Below, piece after piece: positions 21,809-63,800 of a stretch of 64,000 nt of DNA. Below the pieces are notes generated by a model. It worked only from the letters and a program-made list of their open reading frames with translations. It was not told the DNA's origin and did no database searches. The position numbers and the translations under genes were made by a program. How positions within the stretch are numbered: the first letter of the stretch is position 1; every line of letters starts with the position of its first letter. The DNA is taken from the NCBI GenBank assembly GCA_905178155.1, contig CAJINV010000003.1:6877612-6941611 (forward strand), given 5' to 3'. The stretch is from Amoebophrya sp. A120. Taxonomy: Eukaryota > Protista > Dinoflagellata.

Positions 21809-24800
21809 CTATGTTTTCTTGTTCGCTCCTGATGGGGGCTTTGCGGGCCCGGTCGCGCCACGGCCCGACTTTGGGTTCACACGGACTGGCATCAAATGCA
21901 AATATGTCTGGATCAGGATCTGGAAGATTGGGGGAGGTTACCATGCAAATTTTACATGACCCGCGACGTCGGTGATGCATGCTCTACTGAGCAGCACTAC
22001 AGGTTTTGTAAAGGCTTTTTCAGGCCTATCCTGTTTGAGAAATGTCTTCTCCGGGCAGGAAAAATCTGAGAGCCTTTTGGTTTTGCTGCTTATGCAATAC
22101 AGATTTTTGTATCTTCATCGAAAGGTAGCATCATAAGTTCCATTCCTTCCAGACCCGCCAGACATATTTTTTGCAATGCGTAACTGGTGGGCGTTTGGGT
22201 GCCGCGGAGGGCGTGCTGGATTCATCCCCGCGGCTGCTTGCGCTGTCGGTAGTTTGGATCCGCAGCTCCGTTTGCTGAGCCGCTCTCATGGTCCTCGAGG
22301 ACGCCGAGGGCGGGGCAGACCCAATAACCTCCTGTGGTGGTTGCTGCGCCCCCGACAAGTGATCGTCGTCGCCTGGAGGTGCGTCGAGCCCGTAGCGAAT
22401 GCGTGCTTTGCTGACGGCGATACGGGGCACGTCTGGTTCTTTGGACTGCAGCGTCGATGCGCGTAGGGCCCGCGAGGAAGTTGGCTTCAGGCGCATCTCG
22501 ATGCGGCCACCAGTGACCACCTCCGAAGTCGATCCCTCGCCGCTTCCGGCAGGTCCCCCCTCGGGCAGAATTCCGGAGCCGGTCTTCGTCTCCGCCTCGT
22601 TCGTGAGCGCGAGCTGGTCGCCCTCGGGCCGGGGTCCCCGATGGGGCGCCCAGAAGAAGACTCCACGGTCGTTCGCGGAGTGCACACTTTCGAGGTCAAT
22701 CTGGCTGCTGAGCTCCTCCGAGTCCGTGGTGGCCGTCTCGCTCTGCAGGTCCAGATGGTCAGGACCCAGCAGGTGAGTTGATGTTTTCCGCCCGCGCGGC
22801 CTCGACCTGGGGGGGTCATCTCCGTCCTCGTCGTGTGGCGGCTCTCTTCCATCCTTCCCGCGCGCGCCTGGGATAGATATCTTCACTTTATCGCTGTTTG
22901 CGAAGGGGTCGTCATCGTCGGTTGGGTCAACGCCAGCCGGGAGGTACCCGGCCAACAGCATTTGCTTCTGGTACCAACGATCCACCACGTTTGCATACTC
23001 AGTGTCGACGTAATAGAAGTCCACAACCCCGAAGGGTTTGAAAGCCCGCTGCCACAGGGTCAGGAGCAGGACCAGGATGCCCCCATACCCCGCGTAGGCC
23101 CCGATCAACTCCAGAAAGTCGGTGGCGGAGAGCAGGGGGGTCTCCTGGATTCGTTGGGAGGTGGCATCGATGACAAAGATGAGGCGGATGGAGAAGGAGC
23201 TGGCCATGGTCGCGTCGGCCTTGCGGAAACGAACCTCCAATGCGGTGATGCTGTTCACCCACCGGTTCAACAGGATCTTGCCCGTCCACTTATTCACGTT
23301 GTACACCGGGTTCACGTATGCATTGCAAACATGTCCTCATCTGGGTGTGGACTCATTGATTTGTATGTAACGCAAGAGAATCAGAATTCATCCTCAACAT
23401 CGAATGTTGGGATAAGTATCTCTATTATATAATACAGATATTGCATTTGCATGCTCCCCTTCGAGATGTGTAATGCGTAAACGGCTAATGGGATTAGGAA
23501 CCGGCAGTTCTTGTGTCGTGCTGCATGGCACCTTGTCTTTGTCATGTTAAATGCGAAGGAATTCGCGAGATGAAGCCGAGAGGACGAGAAATGTCTTCTC
23601 GTGCTTTATAATTTTCACTTCGGCCGTAGTACTCTATTCGGGTTTTGTTCCAAGCTGCCAGTGTCACTCTGCATTTTTCTGGATCTGTGCAGCAGGTCAT
23701 ACGGGACGCCTCTACACGACCTAAAAACGCCGATTCCGACGCAACAAAGAAGCGAGAAAATATGGGAAGAGGCGCATTTTTCTGCTTCTTTTACTTGGCG
23801 GCCCGCCGCGACCACTTGCGGGCCACAGCTAACAAAACAAGGTGAAAGCGATGGAGTAGCACGCCGAAGCGCACCCGGCAGCGGCAAACCGGAGCACATT
23901 ATCACGGTCTCCGTCCCCGCGGCGACAACCGATGGCACTGCGCAAACATCTTCCCCGGGGCTGAATACGGAAACTTCTTCCGCGGAGCAACCACGGACGG
24001 GGCGGACTGCTACCGCCACCCGACCGACACCAGAACGCCAGCCTCCACCAGATCGGTCTGGCAGTAGCATAACCTCCAACCATCCACCGACGACGCCCCA
24101 GCCCTAGCTCGAGGTGGCGCCAGAGAGACACGAATGCCGGCGGTGAAAAGCCCCGCTCTTTGCAGCCCGGAGGTATGTACACGCGCGCCGACGCCGAGTA
24201 GCGGCATCCAAGCATGCGGAGGGGACGACGACAACGACAGACCGATCATACTCCCCAGGAGCGCGCGTACCTCCCACACTCCTGGTAGTATGATCGGTAC
24301 CGGCCTGATCGTGAAATAGGCATGACTGCACGTCTGCTGTGCGCAGCACAGACTGCTACTTGTACTACCCCTGCGCCCTAGATCCCGAGATAGGTCATGA
24401 CTACATGGACAAACGACAGGCCGTGCATAGTGCGGCAAGGGGCGGCAGCGGCCGGATAAGCTGAACAAGCGTGCGGGGACTGCGCCGGGGGATGGATGAT
24501 CAGGGACTAATTTTTTCTAGATGCTTGTGGTATTTTTTGAGGCAGCGATCAAGGTCAACTATTGTGGGTTCCGGTGGGAGAGTGACCGTCTGCCAATGGG
24601 CTACTAGCGGAAAAAAAAGTGTCTGTATGTTTCGGAAGATTTTCCAGGCGCAGTCTATCTGCTCGGCACTGGAGTCCTAGGCTCATACACCAGGCGGGAC
24701 TATTTGTCGTGCGGTGGGCTGTAGCTTTTTGCATCGCGACCAACGTCGAAGCTTGGGTTCCGGGGGGAAGATGGTCTTAGAGTAGCTCTCATGTCCATTC

Positions 24801-27800
24801 CGTTTTTTCATCCGATCATGCGATGCTTCATACAACAATCAAAATAATAACAGACCGAGGAAGGGTGGTGCGGGGCTTCGGTCACGTGCTGCCCTTCCTC
24901 ACGCCAACCCGGGAAGAAGACAACCGCAGGGGCTGCTGATGCCCAGCCACGAAAACCTGCACTGAGTGGAGTTGCGCCTGCTGCTGCCGCAGCAGGCTGG
25001 AAGCACGTAGATAGACGCCTCAGTACGTCTGAACCACCTAGAAAAAATAGTTTATCGCCTGTTCACAGGCAACCTCGATCGCACTAATTAACACGTACTG
25101 AGGCTAGGCTCAACCGGGTGAGTAGGTATGCCTTTGCAGGCTTAGAAACCGCCCCAGATCTCCCATATCGCCCCCTGTAGATCTAAAATTTTGTATGCGG
25201 CGAGACGAAGACCATGGATTACGGTGGAGACCCATGGCACTAGAATAACTATGTATGACCCGACGCGTGCAAGAGTTGATCAGATGCAGGGGTAGTAGTG
25301 TAGTTTTTGTTGTTCAGTAGCCGAAGGGACCATACAAACCTTAGTACAAGTCTAACAGAACCACTGACGCCGTGGTGCGAAAGCAAAGAAGTAGATCGGT
25401 CCTGTAAATCCAAAAAATGTCTTTCCACATGTTCCAACTCTGCAGCGCGGGATCCAGGCATGCCACAAAGTTAACAGTTGTAGTCAGCACGGGTTCAGGG
25501 CTTTACTTACATAGTGGCGTCGGTAGAAGCGAAAATGATTTTACAGATCATCTTGTAGAAAACTTGTATATAGCTCGGGGTTTAGGGTAAAGGCGTGTTC
25601 TCACGTCAGAGAGGCGACCACACTGCCCCCTCCTAGTCGTGTGCCAGGTTGCGAAAAGATGTAAAACCGCTCCTATCTATCGAGGGTTGGGGTAAGAGGC
25701 AACGCCAATCACCACCTATCTAAAGCTAAAACGCAAGTCTCCAAGTCCAAGCCCAGACATAATATTTGCCATGCATATCACCTGCCACACCACACGGATC
25801 AGCACCTTGGTCATGGGTTTCACCGCAATGTAGCCGTCCTCGGCACTGGAAAGCTGCCGGAGACCGTCGATCAAGTTCAACTATGCATTGCAAATATCCC
25901 TGCCCCTAGACGTCTGCAAAAGTATTAGTGTTACCTGTGCTGTGTCCATCCTGTAAAATGTGTACTATCGGATAAGGTAACCGACAAAAACGAATCCTGT
26001 TTTGTCATGCAAAAACACAGTTTCTATTTCTAATCCTAATGCGCGGCGGCGGCCGCGCTACGTATCAAGAGGCGTCCTCAAAATTTGTCATGCTTGGTGG
26101 CACGACTCAGGAGTGTGCTCAATGAATTATCGTGTTCGTGGCCATTCCGCATCACAAGTTTCTTTCCAGACATCCAGGGATCCGTTTGCAATCCATATCA
26201 AGACTGTGTCGTCAATCTGGTCCACCAGCGCGTTCAGCTGCACCGGGTCCGTATCAAATGCAAACGCGTCTGGGTCTGGAAGATTGCTAGCTTTGTCATG
26301 CATATCTGACATGACTCGAGACTCTGTGATGCGTGGGCACGAAAAGGTCCTCTTACGTGTGATGCAAAAACAAAAACGCAGTTTGTCACGCGGAATGCGC
26401 AACAGATATTTCTAATCAGGACAAAAATTATTTGTCATGCTTGGGCGCGTATTCGTATTGCAGTTCGGGTTCGCGTATGATCAGTCATTATCATTTTATT
26501 TAGCATTACAACTTTCTAGACCCAGCAGACCACGTAATTGCAATGCATAGTCTGTGGGCCAGTGCAACGGCTTCACGGCTTGCACCAAAGCTTCCGTGCG
26601 CTCCCGGTTCACGCGGATGGTAATCCCGGGCAGCAGCATGGGCGGGTTCGCGGGGATACCCTGCGCGCAGCCGCGGACCGTGGTAGAACACAGCGCGCGC
26701 CCTATCATGTGTAAAAACGTCCTCACCTCCCCATAGTCAAGTCTGCTGTTGCGCATGACAAGTTTGGTCTCGTAGTGTAACGCTCTTCAGCCAGTTCAGC
26801 AGCATCACGGATCTAGTATAATATCTCATGCTGATTTTTGGAGGAGCATGACATATTCCGAAGATAAACGACTAGAAATTGCTTCCCATGGGGCTGCTTC
26901 GCATGGGAAATCTGCAGGCAGCATGCAGATTTGCATATACAACTACGGGGAGGAGACGTTTTTAGTTAGGATACGCCCGCGCGCGAACGGCTCGGCCGCC
27001 CACAGCCTTGGCTCCCCGTTCACGTAGTTATCCTGTGCAAAAGCATCGCACTCATAGCAATCGCAAACATGCATTACAAATCTTGCTCTTAAGGTAAACC
27101 CGCATTACAAAATCATATTTCTCATGCTGAGGAAATTTGTAATGCATTTATACCAGTACGATACTTTTGCAGTTCGTAGTAGTCCGTCTCCGCCGACTGG
27201 GTCATGAATTTCCGCTCCACCTCCAGAAACTTGTCGTCAAACGTCAGCTCGTAAGTTGCCTCCAGGTCGATCGTGTACTCTGGCATTACCACGCGGTACT
27301 GCAGTCCGGGCCGCACCTCAGGGTACAGCCAGTGACCCGTCAGCGGACCTTCGATGCGGTAGTCCATAATGTTTTTCGGCGGAAATTCGGCCAAGCAAAA
27401 GAGCCGGAACTTCCCGCTCGCTTTGTCGCGCATCTGGTCCCGGTTCAGACACGTCCGCGAGGGTTCCCCGGTTTGCGGGTGGAAGAACGGCGTAATAGTG
27501 CAGTTGTGCACGCGAAACCGGTCGTGTATGGCGTTCTCAACTGTTACATTCTCAGCTGTTACATGAATTTGTGACGCTAAACCGACCGAAACCAACCACA
27601 TGAATTTGTGATGCAAGAATGGCAAAAGTGACAGGGGTGACCTTGCGCCTCTTGCATGACAGATCTGGCACAGATTCCGAGCCTGTTTGACTCTTCGAGA
27701 ATTTGTCATGCGAAGCAGCTTCCTCGTGTCGGTTTTGGTTGTGTTTTTGCATTACAAATCATGTAACAGTTGAGAATGTAACATTTGAGAACGCCATATC

Positions 27801-30800
27801 GTGGATGGGGTGATAGGCCCACTGGTTGTGGAACGGGGCGTATCCTGTGCAAAAGTATCGTACTCGTAGTAATTGCAGTCATGCATTACAAATCTCGTTC
27901 CTAAGGCAAATCAGCATGACAAATTGCATTTTTCATGCTGAGGGAATTTGTCATGCAATTTATACTAGTACGATACTTTTGCAGTTCATAGGGCGTACTC
28001 CTCCGCGCGGTTGGTGCCGTACACGTTTGTGATACGCTCCCCGGGGATGTTCTTTTTGGGGCAGAGGAATCGCAGCTTGACCCGCCTTGGCATCACGAAC
28101 ATGGCCAAGTCCACCGCCATGGTTTCGGGGGACTTGTAGTTCTCTTTCGAAGTGGGGAGGTAACGGTTCTGTGGCAGGTACATACTGCCCTTGTCCCGGA
28201 ACAGGTTCACCTTGCTGATCGTCTGCACGTCGTAAGACACGACTTTTTTCGAAGCGGGGATGAGGGCCGCAACGCTCTTGGCGAAGTCTGCGATGGCAGC
28301 GGACGCGGCGGCGTATGGAAGCCTCAGCCTCAGGTTGGAAATTCTCAAGAAATAAGTGGCAATAATCTCGTCCTGCGATGCATGAAGATGTCGAAATGCG
28401 GTGCCACAAATGTTGACTCTGTTGCAGCACAGGACGTCGCAACGGGGGCTGACGTCTACTGTGGCCCTGCTACAGTGGGTGTTTAAGAATTGTTGGGATG
28501 GGTGGCTGATGACGATTAGCATGACAGAAGGGTAGAAGTAACCCTTTGCCCTAAAAAATAGCAAGAGAGGTGGTAGGCTTCAAGTAGAGCCCGGCAAATT
28601 TGTCATGCGCCGACCAAAAATAAGTAAAACTATAACGGCACTGTAACTACAACTGAAGTCGTTTCTTTTGATTCGGGATTATATATCACTTTGAAAATTT
28701 GAATTTCCAAACTGAGGCTTTCATACGGCGGTGTCAGTGGCGCTCTGGCCGCTCGTGTCGTGTTTCATGTCGAAGAATCCAAGCTGCTCGAGCTGTGCCT
28801 GCGACAGGAACGGCCAGGCGCACGATATGCACGAAAAAAACTGTGTAAGTGTAAGTCTAGAGTTCTGTGTAAAAACCCAGAAGGAACAAGTTATGGGAAA
28901 TTCTAAGTCTCCTGTAATGCAAAGCGTAATGCGACATTACAGTGTACACTTGTCATGCTAGGCAGCCGCGAATCCCTATGTCATATGCGTCTTCACGTAC
29001 TAGCTGTGCGTGACTGGATTTCTCTGTTATGCGGAGCAGATCTGTCATGGTGTCACTCATCAAAGAAACCTACGCTAATCGACCGTTTTTTTCCTGGATA
29101 AACGAAGGAACCATGTTAATCGTGGGGTTCGCAGGCCACAAACTCTCGTCCGTCCAATCTAGCACAGGCTGACTGGCTTCGCCTGCACAGGCCACACTCA
29201 TGTTCGCTATCCCATGAAAAAAGTGCTCTTACACTTACACATGGTGCTGCAGGTGGACGACCACCGGCAACACAGACAATCTTTGTATTGTCATGCACGA
29301 AATGCTCCTTTCGAGCATCGTTTCATATGTGTTTATTTCCCTTATCATGATCTCTGCATTGCAAGTTTTTTTCTTCATCATGCAGAGAAAATTCGTGTTG
29401 CTGAATTCACAACATCAAATGTGCAACTGTTGTATGGAGCACTTTTTTCCCATGATATTCGCCGCCGACGCGCCAGTTAGCATCCGCACAATCCGCTCGC
29501 TATGCAATGCAAAAGTATCGTACAACTCGTAGTAATTGCAGTCCTGAATTACAAATTCTTTTAGCATTAGCAAGGCGCATCCGCATTCGAAATTTCATTT
29601 CTCAAGCTGAGGAAATTTGTAATGCAAGTATACGAGGACGAGGAGTACGATACTTTCGCAATTCATACTCGCCGTGCCCGCCGCGAATGTTAGGCCCGGC
29701 AAGCATCTCCTGTAGCTGCCGCCTCATGGCAAGCGCTTCGGTTCGGGTTGCTAGCATTCCACCCGCTCCTGCCTGACCAGTACCAGGAGCATTTTCCTTT
29801 TGACCTTCATCAAGGTCAGCTTCATCTGTAGCAACGGCACCGGCAAGGCCGCTTGTTCTACTGCCTTGCCGAGCATCGGCAGAGGAAGGCACCGACCGCT
29901 GAAGACCTCGCGTAGCGGCGCCCGCCTGGCTTGCAGAGTAGTCGAAACCTTTTAGAAGTCGGCTCGATAATTTGGCGTTGATTTGGAACATCGGCTCGTA
30001 AGCTGTGCTTGTTTGTTCTTCATCCAGCGGCCTGGCCAGTGAAGAGGTCCTGTTCCACACCGTGCTCAACATATCTTCGTGGTCGTCCTTTCGAGCGCCC
30101 CCTAGGTTTCGTGCGGGGAACAGCAACCCAGGTTGCGCTCCTGAGGAGACAAGCCGCTCATCTAGTACTTCCACCTGCAAGTGTCTGGCCGCGTTGCTGT
30201 TGTTCCCTGTAGCACGACCTCGTGCTGCCGCGTGCTCTGCACGGGAAAGAGCCTGAGGAGAGATAGAACCCTCGTCGCTTCTGTCACCGTCAGGGGCCGG
30301 GACCAGCACCCGGCGTTCCCAGGCGGGACGGGCGGGGTCCGGTGCTAGGCGCTGAAAGTGCTCAGAGAAGACGGGTGGAAAGCCGTTCCGGTGCAGGACC
30401 GCATTCACCTGGTCTTGCAGCTATCAAATGCAAATATGTCTGGGTCGTCTGGATGAGTCCAGGAGCTTGATCTCATGATGCCGATTTTTTTTGGAAGATG
30501 CACGACCACCACAAGGAGGAACGACTGGAGTTGTGCAGGGTATGGTACCACAGGTTTTCTATGTGCTTTGCTATGCATATGATCCCGCATGAGAAATGTC
30601 GTTTTAGTACCAGGCCAAAGCTGGGCCTGGGCTTCTTGTCGTGCTACCCGCGAAACAATCAAGAGGACAAGTTTTCATATGAAGATCTGCGGGATCACCA
30701 CGCGTCCCGACTTGCAACCTTCCAAACCCAGAGGACATATTTGCAATGCATAGAAGCTCCGCCAGCGTGCGCACCCCCCGCGAAGCGGCTTCCAGTTCTG

Positions 30801-33800
30801 CGAACAAAGCTCGGCCACTATCGTAAGCAAAAACCCTCCCTCCGCATATCGAAAAGCCACGCCTCAGAGACTTTGCGATGCTGATTTGTGACCAAAAATC
30901 GCGTCTGTCTTGCAAGAAAGCAACGGCATAGGCTCCCCCCCCCATTATGCGGGCGGTTTGAGTTTGTAATGCTGTTGGGCCTACAGCATAGGCGTTCCTC
31001 ATGCTAAGTGCCTACGGCCAAAACCTTTCCACAATGGCATGACTTGGGCCTGCAGCAGGCCCCTACTGCAAGACAAATCTGATTTGTGTACGCAAATCCA
31101 GCACCAGAAGATTCGTTTTGATGTGGGGAGGGGGAGTTTTTCCTTTTGATAGCCACGCTCCGTGTGGTCCCAGAACAGGGCAAAGGCTCCTTCTTCGTCC
31201 GGCCCGGAAGCTGTGGAGGGTCGATTCGCGGTCGTTAAGACCTGGAGCGAAGGTGGCGGCCTCTCCGTTCTAGAGTTGAAGACGCTTGTCATTTCATGCG
31301 ACTGCAACAGACGCGGATCGTCCTCGTCGCCGTGCTGATTTTCGTAGCCGTGTCCAAGAAAAACAGGATGATCGTCGGATGGAATTGTTGATGTTGTTGT
31401 ACTTCTCTCTTCATGGACTGTGCTGGTGTCGTGGTCTTCTACTTCTGTGCTTGCGGGAATATTTTCAAAGCCGGATGATCCGGACGATCGTTCTTGCGGT
31501 AGTTCCTTGCCGCGAGCATCGTGCGCTCTTGTGCTGGCTGCCCCGATTTTTGCAGTAGCTGACGTCGACCTCGTCCCGGGCAGATCAGGACCACTGGCCT
31601 TCGTGCCCTTAATAACCGGGAACCTGATCGCCTGCTTCAGATCCCGGCGAAACTGATTACCGATGTCGGCTTGCAGCTGCCTGCGCAGCAGTTGCTCGGG
31701 GGACAGGGGAGTGAAGTAATTGGGCACCTCCCGCTGGTTCAGCGTGGTGTGGAGCTCGTCGTCCGCGTCGACAGGGTCCGCCGCGCTGCGCTTAAGCTTA
31801 TCGCGTCCGCTCTTTATTCCTGTCCCTGCTCCCGCAGTACGCCGTAGGGATGAGGCGGAGGGTGCAGAAGACGATGCTGATACCAGAAGGCGTCGCCAGC
31901 GACGGTCGACAGGTATGCAAGGGAAGTGGGTGGTTTTATTCTACAAAATCTGCCAAGTAGCCGCGAATGAAGAAAGAATCCAAGAATCTATGGCGCTGCT
32001 TCGTATCATTGTTCCGATGAAGCACACTAGATATCACGACTTCTACGCTGGTGCGCATAGGGTTGTAGTTGACTGCATAAGTATAAGAACCTCTTCTAAG
32101 CTTAGCTTGTTGCTTTTTTTTTCTTTGAGGTGTGCTTTTAGCTTTTCTACTTGCATATGACAGAATTAGTTATATTATAACGTGGGACTCCTCGTCGCAC
32201 TCGGAGACAAACTACGAGGAGAAGTCACCAAGTAGAAATCCTCAATGCGAGACTGGGAATCGACGCGCTAGTCGTACCAGCAGCCGGCGATTATATGAAA
32301 ATCACTCACTTCCCTGCGATAGCGAAAAGTTTCTGCGTCAGCAGCTCTGCGGTCGTACCGGCATCAGGGAGCGCTGTCGCTCCGCCAGCCTCCAGGTTTG
32401 CAGTCTGCGTCACCCAAGGGTAGTCTTCCGCAAGAGCGCCCAAGGCATGCTGCGTCGACGTTGCAGCTTCTATTTCCTCGTCTTCGTCTTCGTCAATCAC
32501 GATCATGTTGCCACTTGTTGTTTTTTCTTGTTGCAATCGTCGTAATCCCCATGGCGATGCTTCTTCACAACAACTATTGTGACAAGATTCAGTATTCGGT
32601 GATTGTATATTGCAGGGGACGTGGCCGGGTTTTTTTCGGTAGTTCGAGCCCCATTTCTGACTGCAACTGGCGTTAGTAATAGCCGTCCAGCTACTACAAC
32701 GTTTCCACAGATCTCCATTTGGTACTGCACAACAGCCGCCGTCAATCACGGCGCTTAAGCAATGCTGTCGCTTTAGCTGCAGAGTTCTGTCGTCCCAGTT
32801 TTGCACGTTAGCGCCACTGCAATGTCGTGGTGTTTGTTGCTGATCGTCAATGTAGATTGAAGCCACAATCTGACTATTCTTATGGTACGCTCGACAAGCG
32901 TTGTGGTCTATAGGGACCGTTGGAAAAGCGTTGCATGGGATCAATCTCTTGTTGCAGCACCCGCCTTCATCCGTGAGTCTTGCGCATTCCTTTTTAGTTT
33001 CGAACTGGCACTTCTCAGTTTTGTCCTTCCCTGCTTTCAAGGTCGGATGCGTTTGCATGCACAAGGAGTCGGTCACACCAGACCACCACTCACATTTGTT
33101 CCACCAGGTGTCGCGTTGCCAGACTACACTATCAGGAGCAGTCTTCTTCTTACAGCATCTGAATTTGTCCTCCAGTCCCCTCGTACAGAGCTCAGTTTTC
33201 CTATCCGTATCTTTCGACCACAGCCGACACTCTCGCCAGGATGCTGATCCTTCCACCTTCTCATGCCCCATGTTCGTCTTGCACAAGTCAGTCAGCGATT
33301 GGCCAGCCGGAACGACTCCGCTATTTGCGTTGCACCCAAAGCTTTCTGGTGCGTAGTCACAGCAACCCCAACCACCTGCTTCATTTGCTTCTTTGACGCA
33401 GTCCGCGAAGGTGGAGCCCTGGCACACGGCGCCGGGCTTCTTCGGAGGTGGGTAATCTCCGGGGTTGTAGGTTCGACAATCCTGGTCTGTAATGTCGGCA
33501 CAGGAATAATATGAGGAGACGCAGCAGGCGTCGGGCCCTGTGGTAGAGCCGCAACCGTCCTTGTTCGCCAGGCTACAGGTACGGTCCTCGACCAAGCGGT
33601 GCCCTTCCGGACAGCGGTCGTCCACTCCGCGGCACAGCCAATCCTCCTGTTCGTGGGCGGCGCGGCAGCAGCCTCTTGGCAGCAGAGCAGCTGCTGTAGA
33701 ACCGGAGGACGCGCCGGCTACCGCAGGCTCGGAGAGCATCAAGCACGCCGTCTCGAAATCATGGGTGCACACGCTTTGAGCATCCGCCTTCTTGTGCCCG

Positions 33801-36800
33801 GGCCCGTGCACATCTACACACCGCGCGTCGTCAATGCGCTCCCAGTTCGAGCAGACGGTCCAGAGCTCCTGTTGGGTGTCTGCTGACGGAACGCTGCAAC
33901 AGCCAGGCGATCGACCGTCGTCCTCGCCCGGCCGCTCGTGCAATCTCGCAGCGCAGTCCCAAGCCTGTTCCTCATTAGTCAACTCCGACGTGGTGTGGGT
34001 TGCTGTAGTCCCGTCGGCGATATAAATTGCAAAAGTAACGTACTAGTATAAATTGCAATAGAAATTGGCTCAGCATTACAAATTGAATTTGTAATGCGGA
34101 TTTGCCTTAGGAACTAGATTTGTAATGCATAAACGCAATTACTACGAGTACGATACTTTTGCACAGGATAGGCGAGGACCTGTGTGACTACGTGGTATTT
34201 TCTGGGCTTGCACCAAGTCGCTTCTCCGTCGACATTTTCTGGATTAAATACCGCCGCTTCGTTACCCATCTCCTCTCGGCACATCTCGGTGGTTACCCCC
34301 AAAGCACTACACGATTTCGGGGACTCCTCAACTTCCTGGCAACAGAGAGACTGCGCACACGTGTAGCGACTTTGTCCTCCACTACAAGTCTCCTCGGGAA
34401 AGTAGTAGTAATTATCTCCTCTCGTGTTTTTGCAACTACTTGGTTCAAAATTCCACGACGCACAGGATTCAAAAACATGCAGGGGTAGATCTTGGTAGCT
34501 GCAGCATTTATCATCTTCCACGAGGCCTTCGGTGCAATAGATGGCGACTTCCACGCTCGTCAAAGTGCTGGGCCAGTACTTGCACTCTGCGTTAGGGTCA
34601 CTGGTCCCATGCACAAGTCGGTGCCCCATTTGATATCGACAAAAAGCGGCGTCGGGAAAGCGTTTGGGTGCTTCTGCGAGCGGCTGTTCGAAGGACGTCG
34701 GATGTGGAAGCTCCCCGCACTTGATGCTTCCCGGAGTGCCCGAGTTGGACGATGGTGGCGGATCGCCGCAACAACCTCCGCTGTCTATGTGTGCGGCACA
34801 TTGCTCCTTTGTTGTAAATTGGCAGATTTCATTGGATTCATCTCGATGAGCCACACTGGTAGCGGGATGAGACTGCTGACACATATCAAATGTGACGCCA
34901 GTCCAGAACTTACATCGCGATCGCTCTGCCTGGTAGAGAAACTCGTTTAATCCACCCGGCAACGTACTACTTGGGTCGCCCAGCGAACAGCACCCGTCTT
35001 CGAGTTTGGCACACCGCTCGCGGATCTCGTCGTCTGTTGGCGATGCGTTGTCATTGATCTCAAATTTGCATTCCCGCACGGGCGTCGGTTCTCTGTATGC
35101 TATCACCTTGGAATTCCCAACATTATCTATGCAGTCTGCGTTTGTGAGTGGCGTCCCGCCAACATCTGTTCCTGCTCCACTCGTCTCGACGAAGGGCGGG
35201 AGCGAGTGGCAGGAATAAGTGTGCTGGACGATAGTGATCGGAGGCTCTGCCTGGCAACAGGTAAAAAGGCCTTCGCTGTGGCCTCCGCAACCGGACCCAA
35301 GGTCGACGGGGGCAAAACCGTCCGCGCACTTTTTCTCCAGAGATAAGGCAGTCGGAGCGCAGCAGGGGTAGTCTCCCTCACCGCGGCACTGTTCGTGGTA
35401 ACTTACTTTGGTGTTGCTGCCGCAGACCGCGGGGCCGGTGTACTCGTACCCACTCCCTTGCGCAACACGGTTGACCGAGGTATGGCGTTCTCAAATGTAG
35501 TTACATGCTCAGCTGTTACATGGTTTGTCATGTTGGAAGGCTAAGGGCTGGGCGTCCCCTCGTAAATTAATCCGACAAACAGTAGCCTGAGGTCCTGAGG
35601 TGGGTGACGCGCCCGAGAGCACAGACACCGGCGGAATGGTGACGACCAGAAGGGTCAGGAGACTCACCTTTTGCGAAGGAAGTAGCCGCATACCCGGTAA
35701 ACTCTAGAAAAAATTACTTGGAGGACAAGGCGATTTTTATCGAAAGACAACCACAACAGCATCTGGGACGGCCGCGACGAAAGCTGTGTGGATATCTGGA
35801 TAGGAATAGCCCTGTACAAAAAATTTTTCTAGCACCGAGGCATTAAAAAGAAAGGTAAAAAAGCGATAAAAGTGCTACTAAGACACAGTCCCACCTACAA
35901 CGAAAAAATCACCCTAAACGTCATAGCCCCTGTAATAGCAGTCAAAAGTGTCCTCAACACGGGAGCGTGCGTGTGACAACAACACACAAGGACTTGCATG
36001 CAAACGGCCAGCAAAAACGAACCTGGTGACGACAGAGAGACCCAGGTGGGAAATACAAGCACCTGGGCGGACCAGGGAGGAAAATGCAAGACAAAAACCA
36101 AAAAACAGACACAGATCATGACAAAAACGGCCGGGATGTTACATGGTTTATCATGCAAAATTCCCTTCAGAGTCGACACCTTCAAGCTGCTTCGCATGAC
36201 AAATTCTCAGAGGGCCACGCAGGCTGATAATCTGTTCCAAATCTGTCACGCAAGACGCGCAAGGTCACCTCGTTCACTACTTTTTCCATTCTTGCGTCAC
36301 AAACTCATGTAACACTTGAGAATATAACAGTTGAGAATGCCATACGAGGGTAGGTCATTCCAATGGGGACACTCGATGTTTCGGTTTCTCTTCCAGCATA
36401 TGCATTGCAAAAGTATCGCACTCGTATAAATGCATTACACATTTCCCCAGCATGATCATGCGGATTTACCTTAAGAAAAGAATTTGTGACGCATGACTGC
36501 AATTGCTACGAGTACGATACTTTTGCACAGGATACAGCACCAAGACGGTGTCCCAGACCAGGGATCTCCTCCACCTCCCGGGGGACCTATGGAAGCGTCA
36601 GGTTTCAAATCGACAAAGTTGAAATGATCTGCCATGCATAAAAAGGATGCCAGTTGGAGCCCAGTTTGCAAGTGGCGCATGACAAATTTTGGCGGTTCCT
36701 AAATCCAGTTTGTCATGCTGTTTAGGCAAAGAAGACTGATTTTCTCATACTACGTACTTTAGCAGCTCGAGCTCTAACCCCAAACAGGCTTACAATCGGC

Positions 36801-54800: not shown

Positions 54801-57800
54801 TTTTCTTTTTGGCTTGCTTTCTGCCTTGCAAATGCCGGACTCGACTTTTGTGGCCGGCGTGGCGGCTTCAAAATGGAGGCCAAAATAAGGCCCATAGCAT
54901 GCGGGCTCGCTTTCTTTTTCCCGCCGCCCCTTTTTGGGCGCCCCAAACAGCCAGAAGCCAAGGCGGTGGGCGCCTCAGAAGGGTGCCCCTTTTGCCGGCT
55001 CCCCAGCGTCGTTTTGTCAAGCGTGAGCCCATAGAATTGGCTCTGGCTTGTTTGACAATAAAGCCCCGGCCGCTTGATAAGTAAAGTTTTTCTATGTCAA
55101 AAAACACTTCCGGCCGCTTGAAAACTGCCAGCCGTCTGGCGCACTGCATGGCAAAAAAACAGCTAGGATAGAACGTTCGTGACCTCACTACATACTATTT
55201 CAATTTCTACACTTCTCCAGATGACTCAGACATAGTTGCTGTACGCGTAGTGGCGCAAACACAAACACGGTGGAGCTGGATGGCACAGCAGCATCGTACT
55301 GATCCCCGGCAGAGGTTGGAAAAATAGGGTCGTCTCGCCGATCTGATGGGAATTCGACAATGATGGCGTGTAGAGCCTCGTCGTCGTCCTGGTCAGACGC
55401 TCGCTCTAATTCGACTGGCAGTAGCACGTCTTCATCCGCAGCGGCGTGTGAGGTGGCCATCTCTTGAGCAAGGCGGCTTGCCGCAGGCCGTCGGCGAAAA
55501 CAGCGGCTGGGACCTCCCACGTTGCCCACACCTGCCAAGGCCCATTGATTTCTACTCGACGTCACCAAATCGGAATCACAACCGGTATCCAAAGCGGAGC
55601 TTCGCCTGCTCCGCACCCACACTCGGACTTGTGAAGCTCGGCTGGCGACATCTTCTGCCCCCTGCGTGCGCAAGTCAGTACCTGCGTCATGGTTGCCCAC
55701 CACGGGGCCCGGAACGCCCGCGAGCCGGCAGATGTCTTCGGGTTCGAGCGCTGCTGCCGCCTCAATAGCAGCTCCGTAATATGTCGCAAGAGCACCACCG
55801 CCGCCGGCGCGCACTTCGTAATACTCTCGCCTGTGGCAGCCGGCCAATTCGCACATCGCCGTGCGTGATTGACTGAAGAGCGACACGTGTCGCACGGTGT
55901 TAGGATCCGTCGCAACCAGAAACTCCGACCACGTGCCCGGGACGCGGACGATTGCCCGGGGGAAGGAAGTTCCGTGGGGAAGAAACCGCGCCACGCCCCA
56001 CCTCTCATGCAAGAAGGCTGCACTCAAACTCGTACCATTGATCGGGTCGGGCAACAGCAAGGCGGGCCCCTCATCCGGGGCGACAAGAAACCCAGCTGCC
56101 GTGACTCCTTCGTCTTCGCCGTTCACGTTCTGCCGCAAATCCTCGTATCCACTGGAAATAATATCCCTGGGTCTGGAAACATGCAAGCTTTCTCATGCGC
56201 ACTCGACATGACGACCCACGATGGCCGTCATTTTTATTTCTTATGCAGCCCTAGCTGCATCAGCCTCAGCGTCACAAATTTCGTGAGGGTCTCACGATGT
56301 AGCAGCTTCTTTCGTAGGAGAAAGGCCGTCTCGACGTCCGCGTAGGAGAAAGTACACGAACTCAACATCTCCTCTTGCTGCTAGTATGGAAAGCAGACTT
56401 TTTTAGAATCCAGAGACCGCATGATGATCAACATTGCATACAAGTTGCATTCTACTTCCAGACCCAGATGTGCTTGTTCTTGCATTTGATACCTCGGGCA
56501 CCGGAACCACAGTGGCGACGGGACCGCGTTGCAAGGCCGTGTTGACTATGCATTGCAAATATGTAGTCCGGGTCTGGAAAGGTGCAGACTTGCCATGCAT
56601 AAAAAAGCTAGATGAGATCGCGTTCGCGCCAAAATCTATCCCTTGCTAAGAGTAAAGTCGTGATGGCCAAACTATTATTCCGCAATTCGAAAGTGAAAGC
56701 CAAAAAGCCAAAAAGCTAAAAGCTAAAAGTAAAAGCTAAAAAAGTAAAAGCTAAAAGTAAAAGGCAAAGCTGAAAAATGAAAACTGCAAGCAAGAGAAAG
56801 GCAAAGCGTGCAGCAGAAGGCCAACGGCAGAATTTAAAAAACTTTTGAATTGCACAAGCAACAGCAATAGCAGGCAAGGCGGTGAAAGCTGGATAAAGAA
56901 AGCCAAAGCGTTTTCGGCGCTGACAGAAAATACGACACCTCAGGGTCAGGCTTTCAAAATCTGAAACAGCGGGCGCCCCAGCCCGAGGCTCGAGCTCGAC
57001 CAGCTGCCCGCCATCAGTTCGCTATATAGCGAACTGATGGCAGGCGCCCCCCCCCCGAGGTCCGACCAGGTCCCCGGGCACCTCAGCCCGAGGCTCGACC
57101 AGCTGCCCGCCATCAGCTCGCGGTATAGCGAACTGATGGCGGGCACTCCACCCCGAGGTCCGACCAGGTCCCCGCCATCAGTTCGCTATACCGCGAGCTG
57201 ATGGCGGGCGCTCCAACCCCAAATCCGACCTGGCAGAAAGAACGAGATCGACTGAAACAGCGCGGGAGTTTTTGAATTCCTGTTCTGGTTCTATTTTTTG
57301 TTTTTCGCTCTAGCGGAGTAACTTAATTTTTGGTCACACTTCTACAGGCGAAGCATACGTTGCTAGTTTGTGCTGCATGAGCAGAACCAAAAGTTGCCAA
57401 CTTCTTGCTACGCTGACAGCGAACTTCAATTTTCTCTGCGTGATAGCAACGATGCATGACAATAAACCTGGGCGCGGCAGCACTCTTCCAGACTCAGACA
57501 TCATATTTGCACTGGATATTGACCCTGTCAGCGTACCGCGAATCTGGACGCACGGTTGCATTCGCAAGTTGTGTCACAACGGAGACAAGACTACGACTTG
57601 AATCGGGGTCTGCGAAGCGCGGTAAGGTCTGCGCCTCATCTTCATCCACTTCCGCGAACCAGTACATTGCCAACGTATTCAGGCTGCCCACAGTCAGTCC
57701 ATGACTCGCGGTGAAGGAAAGGGCGGAAACGCCCTCAAGCCCTGACACGACGACCCTACTAAAGTTGCCCGCAGGGACGCACTCGGCATCTCGCGGGGGC

Positions 57801-60800
57801 CGGTCCGCCCACGGGGGGGACATGTAGGAAGCCCACGCGGCGTCGCTCCGAAGAACCGGAGCTACTCCGGGCGTCAAGGTCAGGCGGAAGTCATCCAAGA
57901 AGAACATCGTATCGGCGCGCATCCTGATCCGCGATTCGTAGTCGTCGTTGAGTCGCACAACGAAGCGGTACCGGCGCAGCAGGCCGCGCGCCGCGTAAGT
58001 AGCGGATACGGTACCGAACCTCTCTCCGTCGTCCGTGGTCACGTCTTCATCTTGCGAGTAAAGGGTGCCAGCAGGATCATCTTCAAGGATTTTGACAAAT
58101 AGTTCCATCCTTTTGTCAGTGTATTCCGTCGCGGACCACGGGAGCCTGCGCCCGCCCACATCTCGGACGCGAGGCACAACCACCGCCGTGAAGGAAATTT
58201 CCGCAAAAACAGGGCGATTTTGATCAATCGCATGGCCAGCAAGCCTTGTTTTCTTTGCAGGGAGTACGAAGTCCAGTGCGGCAGACGGGAACGCAACGCC
58301 GAGGGCCCATTTGTTTCGCCCGTCCGCGTAAGCCGTGGTATACTCTTCAAACCAAGCGGTCTCCGAGTTTGCCGCACTGTGCGGCGAACCTGCCCCGATG
58401 GAGGACGCTTCAGGGCGGGGGACTCCTGCGGCTTCCTCGTCGGACAACGGAAAAAATGACCATCCTGGTAAGCTGTACGAGTTCCGAACTTTCCCACCCG
58501 TCTGATACATGAACCGTTTGTCTTTACTTTGCGGCTGAAACAATCGAAAGAGACCTTCGGGTGTCATCGTGTCTGTGCGCAACGGTAGCAGCTCAAATGA
58601 CGGGTTCGGTAACAGGTCGCCCGGCGCCACGCCGGGCAGCGAGGACCCGAAGTGGAAGTCATTCGCGACAGGCCGGCGGCCTTCCGCGCAGGCGCAGGCA
58701 CCACCGAGCCGGGAAGTAGCTGCTGCGGCCGCGAGCTCCTTGACGCCCACACGCACTTGCATCGTTTGAGCTTGCAGCTCGGCCCAACTCGTCAAGGGCA
58801 AGTCATCTGCGTCGGAAAGCGGTGCCACTGGGCCCGACCAGAGTCCATGGGGGTACTGCTGCAGATCCGCCAGGCTGCAAATCTCGTCGCCCTCACGGGC
58901 ACGGCAGGAGTGGCATGCCCCGGGACTGGTTGCGGGGTCGGGTAGTTCGGCGCAACACTCGACCCCGCAGGTCGTGTTTAGACAGTAGACCTCCGGGCGG
59001 ATCACCTGGGTGGGCCGCATTGGGTCCACACCAAAAACGTTGCAGGTTCCCGTCTCCATCAAGAACTCCGCCTGGACCTTGCACTTGTCCATAGCAACGC
59101 TGCAACACAAGTCCTCGGTGCAAGCCCCGACGTCGGCGCCTGGGCACTGCTTATCCCGTGAAATCATCCGCCCCTCGCACCAATGCGGATGCAACCGTTG
59201 AAGCGCCCACTTTGCTTGCCCACAGGTCATGGGCTCCCGTTCTGGGCAGCAGGTCTGCATGGAACAGGAGTTTAAGCTGGTGGAGTAGCATCGCAGGTGC
59301 GGCTGCCACTGGCGCCGTGCCAGCTTGCAATGTTGTTGGAGGTTGCGCGCGGCCGCTTGACACATAATCATGTCCGCGCAACAATTTCCATGGCCGCAAG
59401 AGGACGCGTCTCCCGTGTCTCTCTCACAGTAGTGGTGGGTTTCGAAGGTGGTGATATTTCGGTACATTTCGGAAGACCCCGAGGTGCAGCACTGACCTGT
59501 GCACGCCTCCAGCGTTTCGCCCGTGTTGCACATGTCACTCGGCCACACCTTCCAGGACGCGGCCGAGTCTCCGTGCAGAGTCTGGCAAAGTCGCGTTGCC
59601 CTCTTTTCGTCATCCCGGGAGGCGATCATGGCGGAACAAGGGACGTTAGTACTGAGCCGCCGGCGCAGTTGTACTTCTGTGGGTCGTGCGGAGCCCGAGT
59701 CGGAGTTGTAGTATTCGTACTGCGACTTCTGCTGGTTGTTCTCGTGGTCGTCCACGACGGTGGGTCCAACCACCTCTTTTCGCCGACGCTCCAGGTCCAG
59801 CCCCGGCCCCGGGCGCTCGAATCCGCCTGTTTGTTCTTGAAAAGCGTCCTCTGTCTCCACGTCGTCGCCGTCGAGCTCGTCGACGATGTTGTTGAGGTCA
59901 ACATCTTGGTCGCCGTCGAGCTCGTCGACGTTGTTGAGGTCAACATCTTCAACATCGGGGCGCGCATCAGCGTTTTCTTCGATCCTTTTCACCGGTGAAT
60001 GAAAGGAGCTGCGATCTTCATCTTCACGAGCTGAGCCTAATCTTCCTCTCTTCGGAATACTCGAGGAACTGAAAGGTGTAGTCAACTTTCGGGACCACAC
60101 CCCTGGGAACCCGTCTGGGACTTGCCAAGGGGGGTTTTTTCCACTTTCCACGGCTTCTCGATTTCTCTGGTGCTTCTCATCGGTCGACCGATTCTGGTAG
60201 AAGTGGGTTCCATAGAAGACTTTGTTGTGCGACCCCAAGGAAAAATTGGCACCGGGCTGAAGCAGAGGAAACCGGACACAGTAAGCGTTCTCGCTGTACT
60301 GTCGGTATTCCGAAGTGATTTCAATCGGGCCACACATGCACTGCGGGGTCGGGTGCGTCTTATTGATTGCAAGGACACCCGTTGGCCCGAGGTCGCAATC
60401 TTCCCACTCCATATTGTGGTCGTCCCGAAGGTTGCCGATGCAACGCTCCCAGGGCAGGACTGTGCGATTCGGGTCTGGGTCAATGTCCTCACCGCCCTCA
60501 ACGTAGCACCAGATATCAAATAAAAAAGCTCTCGTCCACGATCACGCATGCGCATTTTTGCAATAAAAAACTGTCTGCGTTTGCCATGCGTAAAAATGCA
60601 CCACAGTCAAATTTCGCACGCAATTACGATTTTCTGCCTTGTACTTGTGCAAAAAAACAAGAAGACTCTGTAACGCGAGTAAAATTTCTACATGCAAAGT
60701 CAAAGACGGAAGTTAGTGACTATGACGTCGAACTTTTTTTATTCCATACCAGAGCGTTGGGCTGTAATGCCGCGCCCGTGCTTCGTCCCGATTTTGAAGC

Positions 60801-63800
60801 CCCTCATTGTTGTTGTTCTTCTGTCTATCCCACGAAAAAGCTGCTTCACTGTGATCATTTTGCAAGATCAGCATCACAAGTTTCTATCTATACACATGAC
60901 AGAAAAAATTTGCCATGCGCGCTTCCAAAGGGAAAACACACTTCAAGAGTCAAGATGGTCTTGCTGCGGGTATAGGAGCAAGACAAAGAAATAGTTATAG
61001 TTCTGCGTTCCATTTTATGCTGCGTCACAAGTTCAGAGTGAAACAGTTTTTTCTTGCGATAGTCTTGATACCACTGGTCCAGGTGTCTTCTCGCATCCGG
61101 GTTGCGGCAGTAGTTTCCGACCATCTTTTTCAGCTGGCCATCCATACTGCCAAGACCGGTTTCCGTCGCATTGAAATACACGTCCCCAAGACTCTGCGCT
61201 TCGGCCCAGCTCCGACACTGCTTTCCGGATTCGGTGACGGCCTGGCACCCTCGATAATTTGTCGATGTCGTTCGCCGCCATTCGTCACAACCGAACGCGT
61301 TGGCGTTGCAACAAGTGGCGCCGATCTTTTGGAAGGCCACCTCGCCGGTGGCGGCATCCACGAGCTGTGGCGATCCGTTGGGAAGGCAGCGAAAGTTGAG
61401 CAGCATGCCACCCAGCACCAAGCTCTTTGGGAGTGGCGGCGGGGGCCGCTCCACAGGACTAAACAGCACCAAGCCGTTCGGCTCGTCCATCCTCCCATCC
61501 CACTCAGGCTCGCAGTTCTCGAACAAAACGCAGCAGCGATGGTTGACGTGCGTGAGTACTACGTGTCCCCAGGGAAACAACGCGAACGCGTTGCAACGGG
61601 CGCCCGTGAGGACGCCATCAGGCGAATGATCCTGCGCATTCATTCCGAGACAGGCTTGGTTGCAGGTTGACCAGGAAACAAAGAAATCGTCCGGGTTCGG
61701 TCCGCGAAGAAGGTCGGTTTCCCCAGAAATCGGAAGGTTCCTCGTTTCGGTTTTGACTGTGCTGCCACCCGTTATTATTTGGTGCGCACACTTCCCACGC
61801 CGGCCCCACCGAGGTGTGGAATCGTTTATTCTGCGACACCGGGTACCACCAGGTAGGATCGTAGCTGGTAAATCTGGGGCGGGGATGTGCAGCAACTTTT
61901 TGGGCAATGTGTAGAAGGCCATCTGCGCGTAAAGATGCTCCGCCGCAGCATGCGACAGCCTGTGTTCCAGCTCACAGGTTCGGGTAGAATATACAATGCA
62001 GCAGGTAGCGCTCAAGCCTTGGCCTTTGGGCGACCACGTTCCTGGAACGTCGTCCCCTCGTTCGGCAGCGTCTGAAGTGCGCTCGTACCTCGGATAGGGG
62101 GGCGTCCATACAGCAAAAACGCCGCAGCCCTGCGTTGCTGCACAGCGAGCTGCGCAGCTTTCCTGCGATACCCGAAAGTTCGGGTCCCGCTGTGCGGGAG
62201 AGCCCTCGAAAAAAAGCGTGGCCTCCGTTCCTCGATCGTGCACTGCATTTAGATGGTAGTGGTCCGCAGTCACGTCTGATGTATCCAGGATGTCCGCCTG
62301 GCCGTCGCACGGACCTAGCAGTACGGATTCTGCGTTTTTTTTGCAACGAAATCCGCGCATGGACGGCACGTAATCGATCACCGGGTGTGCCTGAGTCGCA
62401 AATCGTGGCGCCGCGTCCTTGCGACGTCGGCAGTGAATCTCCAAGGAGGGACCCGAGGGGCGCGAGGTCAGCGATCCGGGCGCGCAAGCGGAGTAGAGAG
62501 CACAACCGTTTTGATTCTGCCACAGGAAGTAGTTGCAACTCCGAGAACGCGTACACGCAGCTGCGCACGCGCGTTTACTTTCGACGTGGGTCGCGTCTGC
62601 AGTCGGCCAGTTCGCAGAACCCAATACGTCCAAGTGTAGCATCTGCGGGACGGGACACCTTTGCTCTGCAATGACCAATTCGTACTGCAGGTCGCTGCAG
62701 ACGTCGGGCTCCACGGGCGGGGCGGAAGAGAGGAGAATGCGAGCACTCTTCGTGGTAGATGTTGTAGAAACCACGCCGGGGTTGGCGTCCTGCTCTGCCT
62801 CAGTAGTTTCATCAGCGTCTTCGTCTTCACCAGTCGCAGTCGCGTCAGTGGCCACGTCCAGCACCTCCTGCGGTACGGCGGTCACACCAAATGCGCCGAT
62901 GCGCGAAGTGCCGTCTTTCAGGAGGTCGCTGAAGAGCGTCGACCAGAGGCGGTTCGGGTGAAATGAGTTGTCTGGCTGGTAATCCTCCGCTCTATATGCA
63001 TTGCAAATATGTCTGGCTCTGGAGGGTTGCAACTTGAACTTGTGATGCTATCTCTGGATTCTATTCTATAAAAAAATCTGTATTGCATGACGAGCAACAA
63101 GAGCGGTCCAGTTTGTGCTACGCGTATCGTATCGCATCGCTTTGACATTTGACTCCTGTCAGGGTGGCGCTAGAACAGATTTAGCCTCTGCCAATGCCGT
63201 GGCGTTAGAACAGATTTAGCCTCTGCCAATGCCCCTAGGTGGGCACCCGTTCCACGTCCTACAGATACCACCCGACCGCATCCGCCGAACCGTTTCCGAT
63301 TTCTTACGCGTGCGTACGGCCAGTGGGCGCTAGATGTGGCTGACCTGCTTTACCATCCAAGCCCGCGAGCAAGGTGGAGCTCCAGCGTTGCCTTGTTGGG
63401 TTATTCTTACAAACTTGGAACGCTACTGCTTTTGTGGTCGGTTGCGCGCTAGATATAGGCATTTTTCATGCGGAGTAGGCATCACGGAGCCGTCTAAAAA
63501 TCTGTGACGCTACGTCATGCATTACAGGCGTTATGGGTCGTCATGGAAAATCTGCATGACAAGTCTTGCAACCACCTTCCAGACCCAGACATGTTTGCAT
63601 TTGATACTCTAGTGAAATGCCACACGTCTTCATCGTTGAACGAAATTCGCACCACCGATTCCCCGAGAACACCGTCAGACTGCACTGCGATCACCACTTC
63701 TTGTTGCGAAGGCAACCTGAACTTCTGGCCAGCGGACGTTGACGTCGGGTGGTCCCTGTAGTATGTGACTTCCTGTGCGGTTTCCGTATGTGTCGACCCC

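Follow-up and report, generated by a model that had tools for sequence, protein, structure and literature searches.

The giant gene and its protein

We analyzed a 64,000-nucleotide (nt) stretch of the genome of the dinoflagellate Amoebophrya sp. A120 (contig CAJINV010000003.1, positions 6,877,612 to 6,941,611), referred to below as the window, in which a single giant gene is interrupted by 37 transposon-like introner elements (IEs), the 36 that were checked being absent from transcript data. The gene lies on the minus strand at positions 21807 to 64000, with 38 exons and 37 introns in the window; its 5' end is open at 64000 and its stop codon is near 21807. The initial annotation had held that deleting each element plus one copy of a flanking 5-bp direct repeat (DR) restores the reading frame at 37/37 junctions. 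Indeed, deletion of element plus 5 nt at the 37 sites yields one stop-free minus-strand frame of 8,567 codons, counted from the window end. When the number of nucleotides deleted with each element (k) was varied, only k = 5 (both sides) gave the full open reading frame (ORF) of 8,567 amino acids (aa); k = 2, 8, and 11 were in frame but gave 5,064 to 8,530 aa, and every other value gave about 1,100 aa. Together, the 37 elements in this gene take up 16.5 of 41.7 kb.

The spliced ORF comprises 8,567 aa or more and is supported by its frame, Pfam matches, homologs, and transcript contigs. The Pfam matches are to kringle, PAN, and NHL domains. A kringle begins in the exon upstream of element 35 (E value, 1.6e-7), and its LWCYV motif is reconstituted across the junction of that element, as had been claimed. 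The C-terminal domain of about 550 aa, which ends in a hydrophobic stretch, gave no match in a Pfam search, and searching proteins of 659 to 2000 aa for homologs of the C-terminal exon gave none either; a search over all lengths found the domain to be common to Amoebophrya proteins of 3,600 to 3,850 aa. The named homologs of this domain are Amoebophrya proteins (10/16 matches looked up), plus one weak bacterial match; a paralog is present in A120, and the protein atlas returned solely unnamed eukaryotic clusters. Homologs of the host protein align collinearly over junctions 2 to 11. A transcript contig of 29,466 nt from sequencing run X4 reaches 6,011 nt past the window end, and the host mRNA is therefore longer than 32 kb. 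The product is probably a giant surface protein.

Structure of the elements

Scanning for inverted ends with flanking repeats, supplemented by reading of the sequence, located the elements. They lie between positions 21890 and 63606, are 136 to 2461 nt long, and have terminal inverted repeats (TIRs). As described in the initial annotation, most read TAT...ATA on the plus strand (34/37); element 1 reads CAT...GTA, and elements 6 and 32 read TAT...GTA. On the sense strand of the gene, all 37 start with TA and 34 start with TAT. The annotated repeat counts were reproduced exactly: 25 DRs are perfect, 7 match at 4/5 positions, and the 5 described as decayed match at 1 to 2 of 5, so that 32/37 match at 4/5 or better. 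With a per-site chance of 0.0012, 25 perfect repeats in 37 correspond to a P value of about 1e-64, and the DRs are likely to be target-site duplications (TSDs). None of 16 ORFs from five long elements has a Pfam match, and no transposase was found in the window. With TIRs, a TSD of constant length here and in a second assembly (see below), and no transposase among the ORFs of the long elements, the elements have the features of miniature inverted-repeat transposable elements (MITEs). Several families occur in the gene, with members in both orientations; elements 8 and 16, for example, are 88% identical and oppositely oriented. Near-full-length copies of 19/37 elements were found in the second assembly.

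The two ends of an element can pair with each other. Complementarity holds in 34 to 37 of the 37 elements at TIR positions 1 to 3 and in 34 to 36 at positions 11 to 13, where A is present in 29 to 33 elements and some families deviate, while positions 4 to 7 are complementary in just 14 to 25. Folding of the 32 elements shorter than 700 nt predicted an end-to-end stem at positions 11 to 13 in 28 and the terminal three pairs in 21, and the minimum free energy (MFE) was lower than that of mononucleotide shuffles (z < -2) in 23/26 short elements. Positions 4 to 7 are less complementary than positions 1 to 3 and 8 to 13 in the second assembly as well (54 to 97 of 128); at position 4, each end has G or C, and the two do not pair. 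This weakly paired segment may mark left and right ends for a transposase or form an internal loop for an RNA-binding factor.

The initial annotation assigned the elements to the introner class of Amoebophrya, and the published A120 features match. That account describes TAT followed by 7 variable bases and a run of A, inverted repeats of 8 to 20 nt, and direct repeats of 3 to 5 nt, given as 5 bp in the legend of Fig. S19 (PMC7789003). All of its features were found here, namely TAT and the A run, inverted repeats, direct repeats at the borders, families, and RNA-supported non-GT-AG borders. Tens of introners per gene have been reported for A120, and one TIR introner family carries an integrase-like ORF (PMC12130899). 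The elements thus belong to an already known class, of which this 37-element gene, real, expressed, and spliced, is a dense example; what is added here is the cutting rule and an asymmetry at the second intron base.

Removal of the elements from transcripts

Six of fifteen sequencing runs were compared with the window; the estuary metatranscriptome runs X7 and X10 to X12, with small word shares, play no part in the comparison. Run X13 is raw RNA-seq; X1 is a run of unrecorded kind that is DNA-like and may come from the sample that the window was sequenced from; X3, X4, and X5 are contigs of one sample, the RNA status of which was guessed by the tool. It had been predicted that RNA would show gaps of exactly element plus 5 nt, and such gaps were seen in raw reads and in contigs. 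In X13 (21750 to 41749), elements 1 to 8 were joined at exactly this length at 8/8 listed joints, with 215 to 389 reads each. Element 1 (21890 to 22182; 293 nt; DR, 5/5; sense ends, TAC...ATG) was joined from 21884 to 22183 in 272 reads. Element 2 (23317 to 25777; 2461 nt with an internal insertion; DR, 4/5) was joined from 23311 to 25778 in 269 reads, element 3 (25882 to 26197; 316 nt; DR, 4/5) from 25876 to 26198 in 256 reads, and element 4 (26252 to 26549; 298 nt; DR, 4/5) from 26246 to 26550 in 271 reads. The other four have perfect DRs: element 5 (26703 to 26973; 271 nt; 215 reads), element 6 (27029 to 27178; 150 nt; sense start, TAC; 389 reads), element 7 (27527 to 27798; 272 nt; 253 reads), and element 8 (27841 to 27990; 150 nt; 288 reads). 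The depth of X13 was zero in three bins wholly inside element 2, and contigs of X3 and X6 share the joints of elements 1 to 8. Exon coverage by X13 nearly vanishes past about 30.4 kb, and the joints listed are 15 of 1,514, so that minor alternative junctions may exist. Near the fading coverage, 99 X13 reads end at 29835 in loose sequence, which we take to resemble a template-switch adapter; these ends probably stem from library preparation and not from the start of a transcript.

In the contigs of X3 to X5 (41093 to 61092), elements 24 to 36 (13/13) were joined at element plus 5 nt with no other letters. Three of these have poorly matching DRs (2/5): element 24 (41128 to 41644; 517 nt), joined from 41123 to 41646 without slide in X3 to X6; element 25 (41842 to 42254; 413 nt), joined from 41837 to 42256 without slide in X3 to X5; and element 36 (60826 to 61061; 236 nt), joined from 60821 to 61063 with a slide of 1 nt. 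Element 31 (53644 to 53952; 309 nt; DR, 1/5) was joined from 53637 to 53952 with a slide of 2 nt. Joints were also seen for nine elements with perfect DRs, namely, element 26 (43036 to 43345; 310 nt), element 27 (43385 to 45071; 1687 nt with an internal insertion; the joint skips 1692 nt), element 28 (46863 to 47150; 288 nt), element 29 (50334 to 50618; 285 nt), element 30 (51949 to 52203; 255 nt), element 32 (54258 to 55249; 992 nt with a nested element; sense start, TAC; the joint skips 997 nt), element 33 (56146 to 56491; 346 nt), element 34 (56547 to 57518; 972 nt), and element 35 (60514 to 60748; 235 nt), which splits the kringle motif. Elements 2, 27, and 34, long and with extra DNA, were thus still precisely removed.

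For most of the elements in between, the evidence is that contig offsets match the predicted spliced distance summed over neighboring elements. This agreement was found in 18/18 intervals, including one of 20,824 nt across elements 13 to 34. Elements 9 (28314 to 28725; 412 nt; DR, 5/5), 10 (28826 to 29100; 275 nt; DR, 4/5), 11 (29208 to 29457; 250 nt; DR, 5/5), and 12 (29501 to 29667; 167 nt; DR, 5/5) are supported together in this way, as are element 14 (30819 to 31151; 333 nt; DR, 5/5) and the series of elements 17 (35481 to 36344; 864 nt), 18 (36399 to 36534; 136 nt), 19 (36588 to 36898; 311 nt), 20 (37171 to 37451; 281 nt), 21 (37508 to 37769; 262 nt), and 22 (38294 to 38443; 150 nt), all with perfect DRs save element 20 (4/5). 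Beside element 13 (30422 to 30752; 331 nt; DR, 4/5), a piece of the X3 and X6 contigs stops at 30416, and a piece end at 40354 and the record offsets bear on element 23 (40359 to 40663; 305 nt; DR, 4/5). Adjacent pieces run from 31909 to 32323 in X3 and X6 at element 15 (31914 to 32321; 408 nt; DR, 1/5) and from 34015 to 34171 at element 16 (34021 to 34170; 150 nt; DR, 5/5). Taken together, 36/37 elements have transcript support, consisting of 21 listed joints, 2 sets of adjacent pieces, and 13 summed lengths, in spliced contigs of 25 to 29 kb that are identical to the exons. Element 37 (62995 to 63606; 612 nt; DR, 5/5) lies outside this coverage, and its basis is frame restoration.

The initial annotation preferred RNA splicing to programmed DNA excision and called for a search for element-less alleles. 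In the DNA-like run X1, the depth was 0 for the eight joined forms of elements 1 to 8, and X1 contigs run unbroken through elements 1, 9, 10, 15, and 24. High depth of element sequence in the same run, of element 21 especially, supports very high-copy and repeated families. Since the elements are missing from RNA at element plus 5 nt and yet are kept in X1, RNA splicing rather than DNA excision is favored.

Position of the cut

In a perfect DR, the cut cannot be placed, whereas in an imperfect one, the transcript reveals base by base from which copy each base came. We denote by r how many bases of the upstream copy are retained. Of the 12 imperfect DRs, 10 were observed in this way; registers of elements 13, 15, and 23 were read from piece ends and offsets and the others from joint tables, and elements 10 and 20 were left out. 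Elements 2 and 3 require r of at least 1, element 4 requires r of at least 2, element 23 allows r of at most 4, elements 13 and 31 allow 4 or 5, elements 15 and 36 allow 3 or 4, and elements 24 and 25 force r = 4. The only register compatible with all 10 junctions is r = 4, and independent uniform registers agreed in 0.12% of simulations (P = 0.0012). At junction 2, the RNA form encodes WQVNP, as in 4/5 of the homologs shown (the fifth has WQVNA), and r = 0 would give WHV. At the seven junctions where it can be distinguished, the chimera of 4 + 1 repeat bases always follows the sense strand. Informative junctions in opposite orientations (element 3 versus 23 and element 10 versus 20) leave r = 1 and r = 4 unseparated.

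Wherever it can be placed, then, the cut fits a single register, 1 nt ahead of TAT and 4 nt past ATA, and is not free to slide within the DR. Because only r = 4 fits, the intron comprises a single base of the target, the element, and four more bases of the target (N-TAT...ATA-NNNN); at this inferred register, it extends in plus-strand coordinates from element start minus 4 to element end plus 1 for every element. At this register, T at +2, A at +3, A at -7, and T at -6 are each present in 37/37 introns; +1, -1, and -2 are mixed; G is at +5 in 18/37; and +5 to +8 are variable. The three cases of GT-AG that had been obtained by sliding within the DR, elements 19 (36588), 26 (43036), and 33 (56146), were the only ones found here as well. 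However, elements 19 and 26 give GT-AG only at r = 1, a register excluded elsewhere by imperfect DRs, so that at r = 4 only element 33 has GT-AG (1/37) and AT-AC is absent (0/37). The claim of precise removal without GT-AG accordingly stands for 36/37 elements in the transcript data. With a single register, dozens of seemingly different splice motifs reduce to one rule with exact intron ends, which would allow gene models to be corrected at imperfect repeats.

The published account differs on this point, in that the legend of its Fig. 3 calls the splice sites variable with respect to the hairpin and the border positions unknown (PMC7789003), while here the 10 informative junctions all agree with one register and U at +2 appears constrained. 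In all nine predominant non-canonical A120 splice motifs of its Table S4, the second base is T, which is what the register predicts. No fixed register for Amoebophrya IEs is stated in the mostly open-access literature searched, although Fig. 3, 4, and S19 to S23 of PMC7789003, outside that text search, may bear on it. Nor does one appear in the examined passages of PMC12130899, PMC11282704, PMC11453091, PMC12787238, and PMC12005148.

Terminal bases in a second assembly

A pattern scan found the same IE families in another public assembly, JACKZZ01 (162 loci, L001 to L162; 412 kb), with up to 93% identity. Among 330 TA...TA elements there, an exact DR of 5 bp was found in 255, one of 4 bp in 1, and one of 6 bp in 0. 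Of 384 elements called, 128 were assigned a strand by a coding model; cross-validated on the window gene, the strand caller was correct in 50/52 cases when filtered and in 90/102 overall. At r = 4, GT-AG occurs in 7/128 elements (4.6 expected) and AG in 15 (13.5 expected), and no selection for canonical signals is therefore seen at the target sites. An ortholog of the giant gene was not found among the 162 loci, and hence no empty-site allele was seen.

Changes in the terminal bases were counted in 20 elements (of 21) that have one altered base in TAT/ATA and enough flank; L004 was left out of this count. At the outermost TIR base, 8/8 changes in JACKZZ01 fall at the inferred sense 3' end, and with element 1 of the window, the count is 9 versus 0 (P = 0.004); it is 7:0 (P = 0.016) in the unseeded, better-called subset and 5:0 (P = 0.06) in the strictest. 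By contrast, positions 2 and 3 are altered at both ends (9 versus 6; Fisher P = 0.007 against position 1), and there pair-breaking transitions outnumber wobble-making ones by 9 to 3, so that tolerance of G-U pairs does not explain the asymmetry. A constraint acting on the DNA should affect both ends alike, and one acting on pairing should favor wobbles; the simplest reading is therefore that U at +2 of the intron is required as sequence in the RNA.

A at -7 is present in 37/37 elements of the window and 126/128 of JACKZZ01 and is a branch-point candidate only. A fixed branch A at -5 was rejected, being altered in nine elements, one of which (element 1 of the window) is spliced. A stop-codon test of the register at 22 imperfect DRs of JACKZZ01 gave one that excludes r = 5 (L004, the boundary of which is probably misplaced) and one that excludes r = 0. 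In elements with perfect DRs in JACKZZ01, 54/106 would be in phase 0 at r = 4, an excess absent from the window gene and possibly an artefact of the frame caller.

Mechanism of removal

The register and the asymmetry at +2 make the mechanism by which introner elements are removed testable. We put at roughly 50% the reading that a relaxed U2-type spliceosome removes the elements from pre-mRNA and that the paired TIR ends, and not GT, AG, or an oriented branch signal, determine where it cuts. The element would be inserted, in either orientation and with duplication of 5 bp, by a DDE transposase that is encoded elsewhere. In the pre-mRNA, the TIRs are predicted to pair and draw both ends together. 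The mRNA, as seen where the cut can be placed, retains the first four bases of the upstream DR and the last base of the downstream DR, which restores the original coding sequence for any target, and the intron reads N-U-A-U-(G/C)...A-U-A-N-N-N-N. U at +2, the sole donor base never seen altered, would be read by the catalytic core of the spliceosome, with +1, -1, and -2 free. A branch point may take part, and the product may be a lariat, a circle, or linear.

This reading is favored because the constrained base occupies the invariant position of the donor, because A120 has largely kept its spliceosome, and because tunicates offer a precedent. U2, U4, U5, and U6 and 83/89 spliceosomal proteins are reported for A120, with U1 small nuclear RNA (snRNA) undetected (PMC7789003), and the non-canonical introns derived from transposable elements (TEs) in the tunicate Fritillaria are excised by the spliceosome, according to a review (PMC11282704). 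Set against the usual description of a U2-type intron, GT/GC-AG termini are found in 1/37 introns and U at +2 in 37/37. The description as a non-GT-AG pathway is true of the dinucleotides, then, and is compatible with a modified spliceosome. A U12-type intron was considered and rejected, given 0 AT-AC at r = 4, variable +5 to +8, and the reported absence of the minor snRNAs from A120 (PMC7789003).

Several observations weigh against a spliceosome. One family is removed in both orientations (elements 8 and 16), bases +1 and -1 show no consistent pairing, and no sense-biased branch or pyrimidine motif was found in 165 elements. Because the second step of splicing normally depends on the terminal bases (AG) and on branch and pyrimidine features, the spliceosome would need large changes. 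In JACKZZ01, GT-AG and AG stay near expectation, as given above, and G at +1 is present in 44/128 elements against a background of 31%. The data themselves are uneven: both junctions that force r = 4 (elements 24 and 25) come from contigs of one study with guessed RNA status, raw reads bounding only r of at least 2, and the asymmetry test leans on the strand caller and on elements without an RNA check, elements 1, 6, and 32, precisely spliced, being the exceptions. Finally, a similar offset code in Euglena yields circles and has been attributed to distinct machinery (PMC11282704, PMC12501133).

The last point leads to a close, more tentative contender, in which A120 would have a second splicing system separate from the spliceosome and convergent with that of Euglena. 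A protein ruler or an endonuclease-ligase might act on the TIR stem and TAT/ATA, reading the code N1-TAT...ATA-N4 with the TIR ends as ruler, restoring any 5-bp target in either orientation and releasing circles or linear introns. It stays close because removal depends on neither G at +1, AG, a branch motif, nor orientation and because the architecture parallels the N3-CAG...CTG-N5 of Euglena, with a short 5' spacer and a longer 3' spacer (PMC12501133). The Euglena introns give circles for which distinct machinery has been proposed (PMC11282704, PMC12501133), and canonical introns coexist in A120 at 35% (PMC7789003). However, the strand-asymmetric U at +2 coincides with the invariant U of the spliceosomal donor, its partner A at -5 is dispensable (element 1 is spliced, with 272 reads), and no candidate enzyme turned up, none having been tested. 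If this is true, insertions of unrelated families, in the tens of thousands, would be turned into harmless introns by the second independently evolved code of this kind after Euglena.

It is unlikely that hairpin geometry alone steers a sequence-blind cut, with TAT/ATA kept only for transposition. The complementarity of TIR positions 1 to 3 and 11 to 13 and the low MFE fit such a cut. But the terminal three pairs are predicted in just 21/32 elements, pair-breaking changes at positions 2 and 3 are tolerated (elements 1, 6, and 32 carry them and are precisely removed in RNA), and a symmetric DNA constraint cannot yield the 9:0 sense asymmetry. The hairpin alone, which the initial annotation had suggested as a guide for RNA splicing, is thus insufficient, since the outermost pairs tolerate mismatches and U at +2 is conserved as sequence.

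Programmed DNA excision, resembling that of internal eliminated sequences (IESs), in a life stage that the DNA run did not sample would supply element-less templates for transcription, and we regard it as highly improbable. The ends are transposon-like, assembled contigs lose rare variants, and the life stage of X1 is unrecorded; yet none of the 8/8 joined forms has depth in X1, five elements are spanned intact there, and symmetric excision would be expected to give both forms of the chimera, which follows the sense strand at seven junctions. A TE-riddled pseudogene or an assembly artefact, in favor of which no point was found, can be dismissed, as the locus is transcribed into 25- to 29-kb spliced contigs identical to the exons and homologs are collinear across junctions 2 to 11.

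Whether by the relaxed spliceosome that we favor or by separate machinery, the outcome is notable, being either a spliceosome able to dispense with both G at +1 and AG or, in an alveolate, a second machinery for nuclear splicing. Removal at a fixed offset would explain the free invasion of exons by TIR elements in the A120 genome.

Comparison with known systems

The nonconventional introns of Euglena share TIR-like ends, borders that slide owing to direct repeats, fixed spacers of which the 3' one is longer, and coexistence with GT-AG introns (PMC12501133, PMC11282704). They differ in their code, N3-CAG...CTG-N5 as against N1-TAT...ATA-N4 here, in the unrelated lineage, and in that circular release is known for Euglena (PMC12501133). 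A minimal synthetic intron has been designed for Euglena. The Euglena code was derived after slidable introns had been dropped, and Amoebophrya is unmentioned in the searched passages of that paper (PMC12501133).

In the MITE-derived introns of Fritillaria borealis and the introners of Micromonas, Aureococcus, and Polarella, an insertion with TIRs and a TSD likewise becomes an intron, and the equivalent of one TSD is spliced out (PMC11282704). Those introns use defined dinucleotides (AG-AC/AG-AT, or GT/GC-AG with one site derived from the TSD) (PMC11282704), whereas here both terminal bases belong to an arbitrary target. IS3EU/GingerRoot elements also have TA...TA termini with TIRs, but their TSD is usually 6 bp (PMC10045372), as against 5 bp in 255/330 and 6 bp in 0 elements of JACKZZ01. 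The group III introns of euglenid plastids resemble these introns in their donor, 5'-NUNNG, in which the first base is free and the second is U (PMC3534033). In contrast, they are plastid, derived from group II, and have a pseudo-domain VI near the 3' end (PMC3534033), while the introns described here are nuclear, have an end-to-end TIR, and carry G at +5 in 18/37.

Other features of the window

Some of the long elements hold further repeats. Nested in element 32, at 54496 to 55191, is a second type of TIR element of about 700 nt, with ends GTAGTGAGGTCA; a relative lies outside the gene at about 18210 to 18920 (74% over 289 nt). Element 27 holds a 1.5-kb insert with 60-bp tandem repeats (43522 to 45012), element 34 holds palindromic repeats (57005 to 57209), and element 2 (23317 to 25777) holds about 2 kb of extra DNA. 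In the first 21 kb of the window, more candidate TAT...ATA elements were recognized from sequence at 1475 to 1764, 1871 to 2052, 4916 to 5366, 11728 to 11991, 15465 to 15748, and 19417 to 19727, all with imperfect repeats. The same region has an uninterrupted glutamate 5-kinase ORF on the minus strand (7501 to 9957; AA_kinase and PUA), the best named match of which is a protein of Amoebophrya sp. A25, at 63% over the kinase region.

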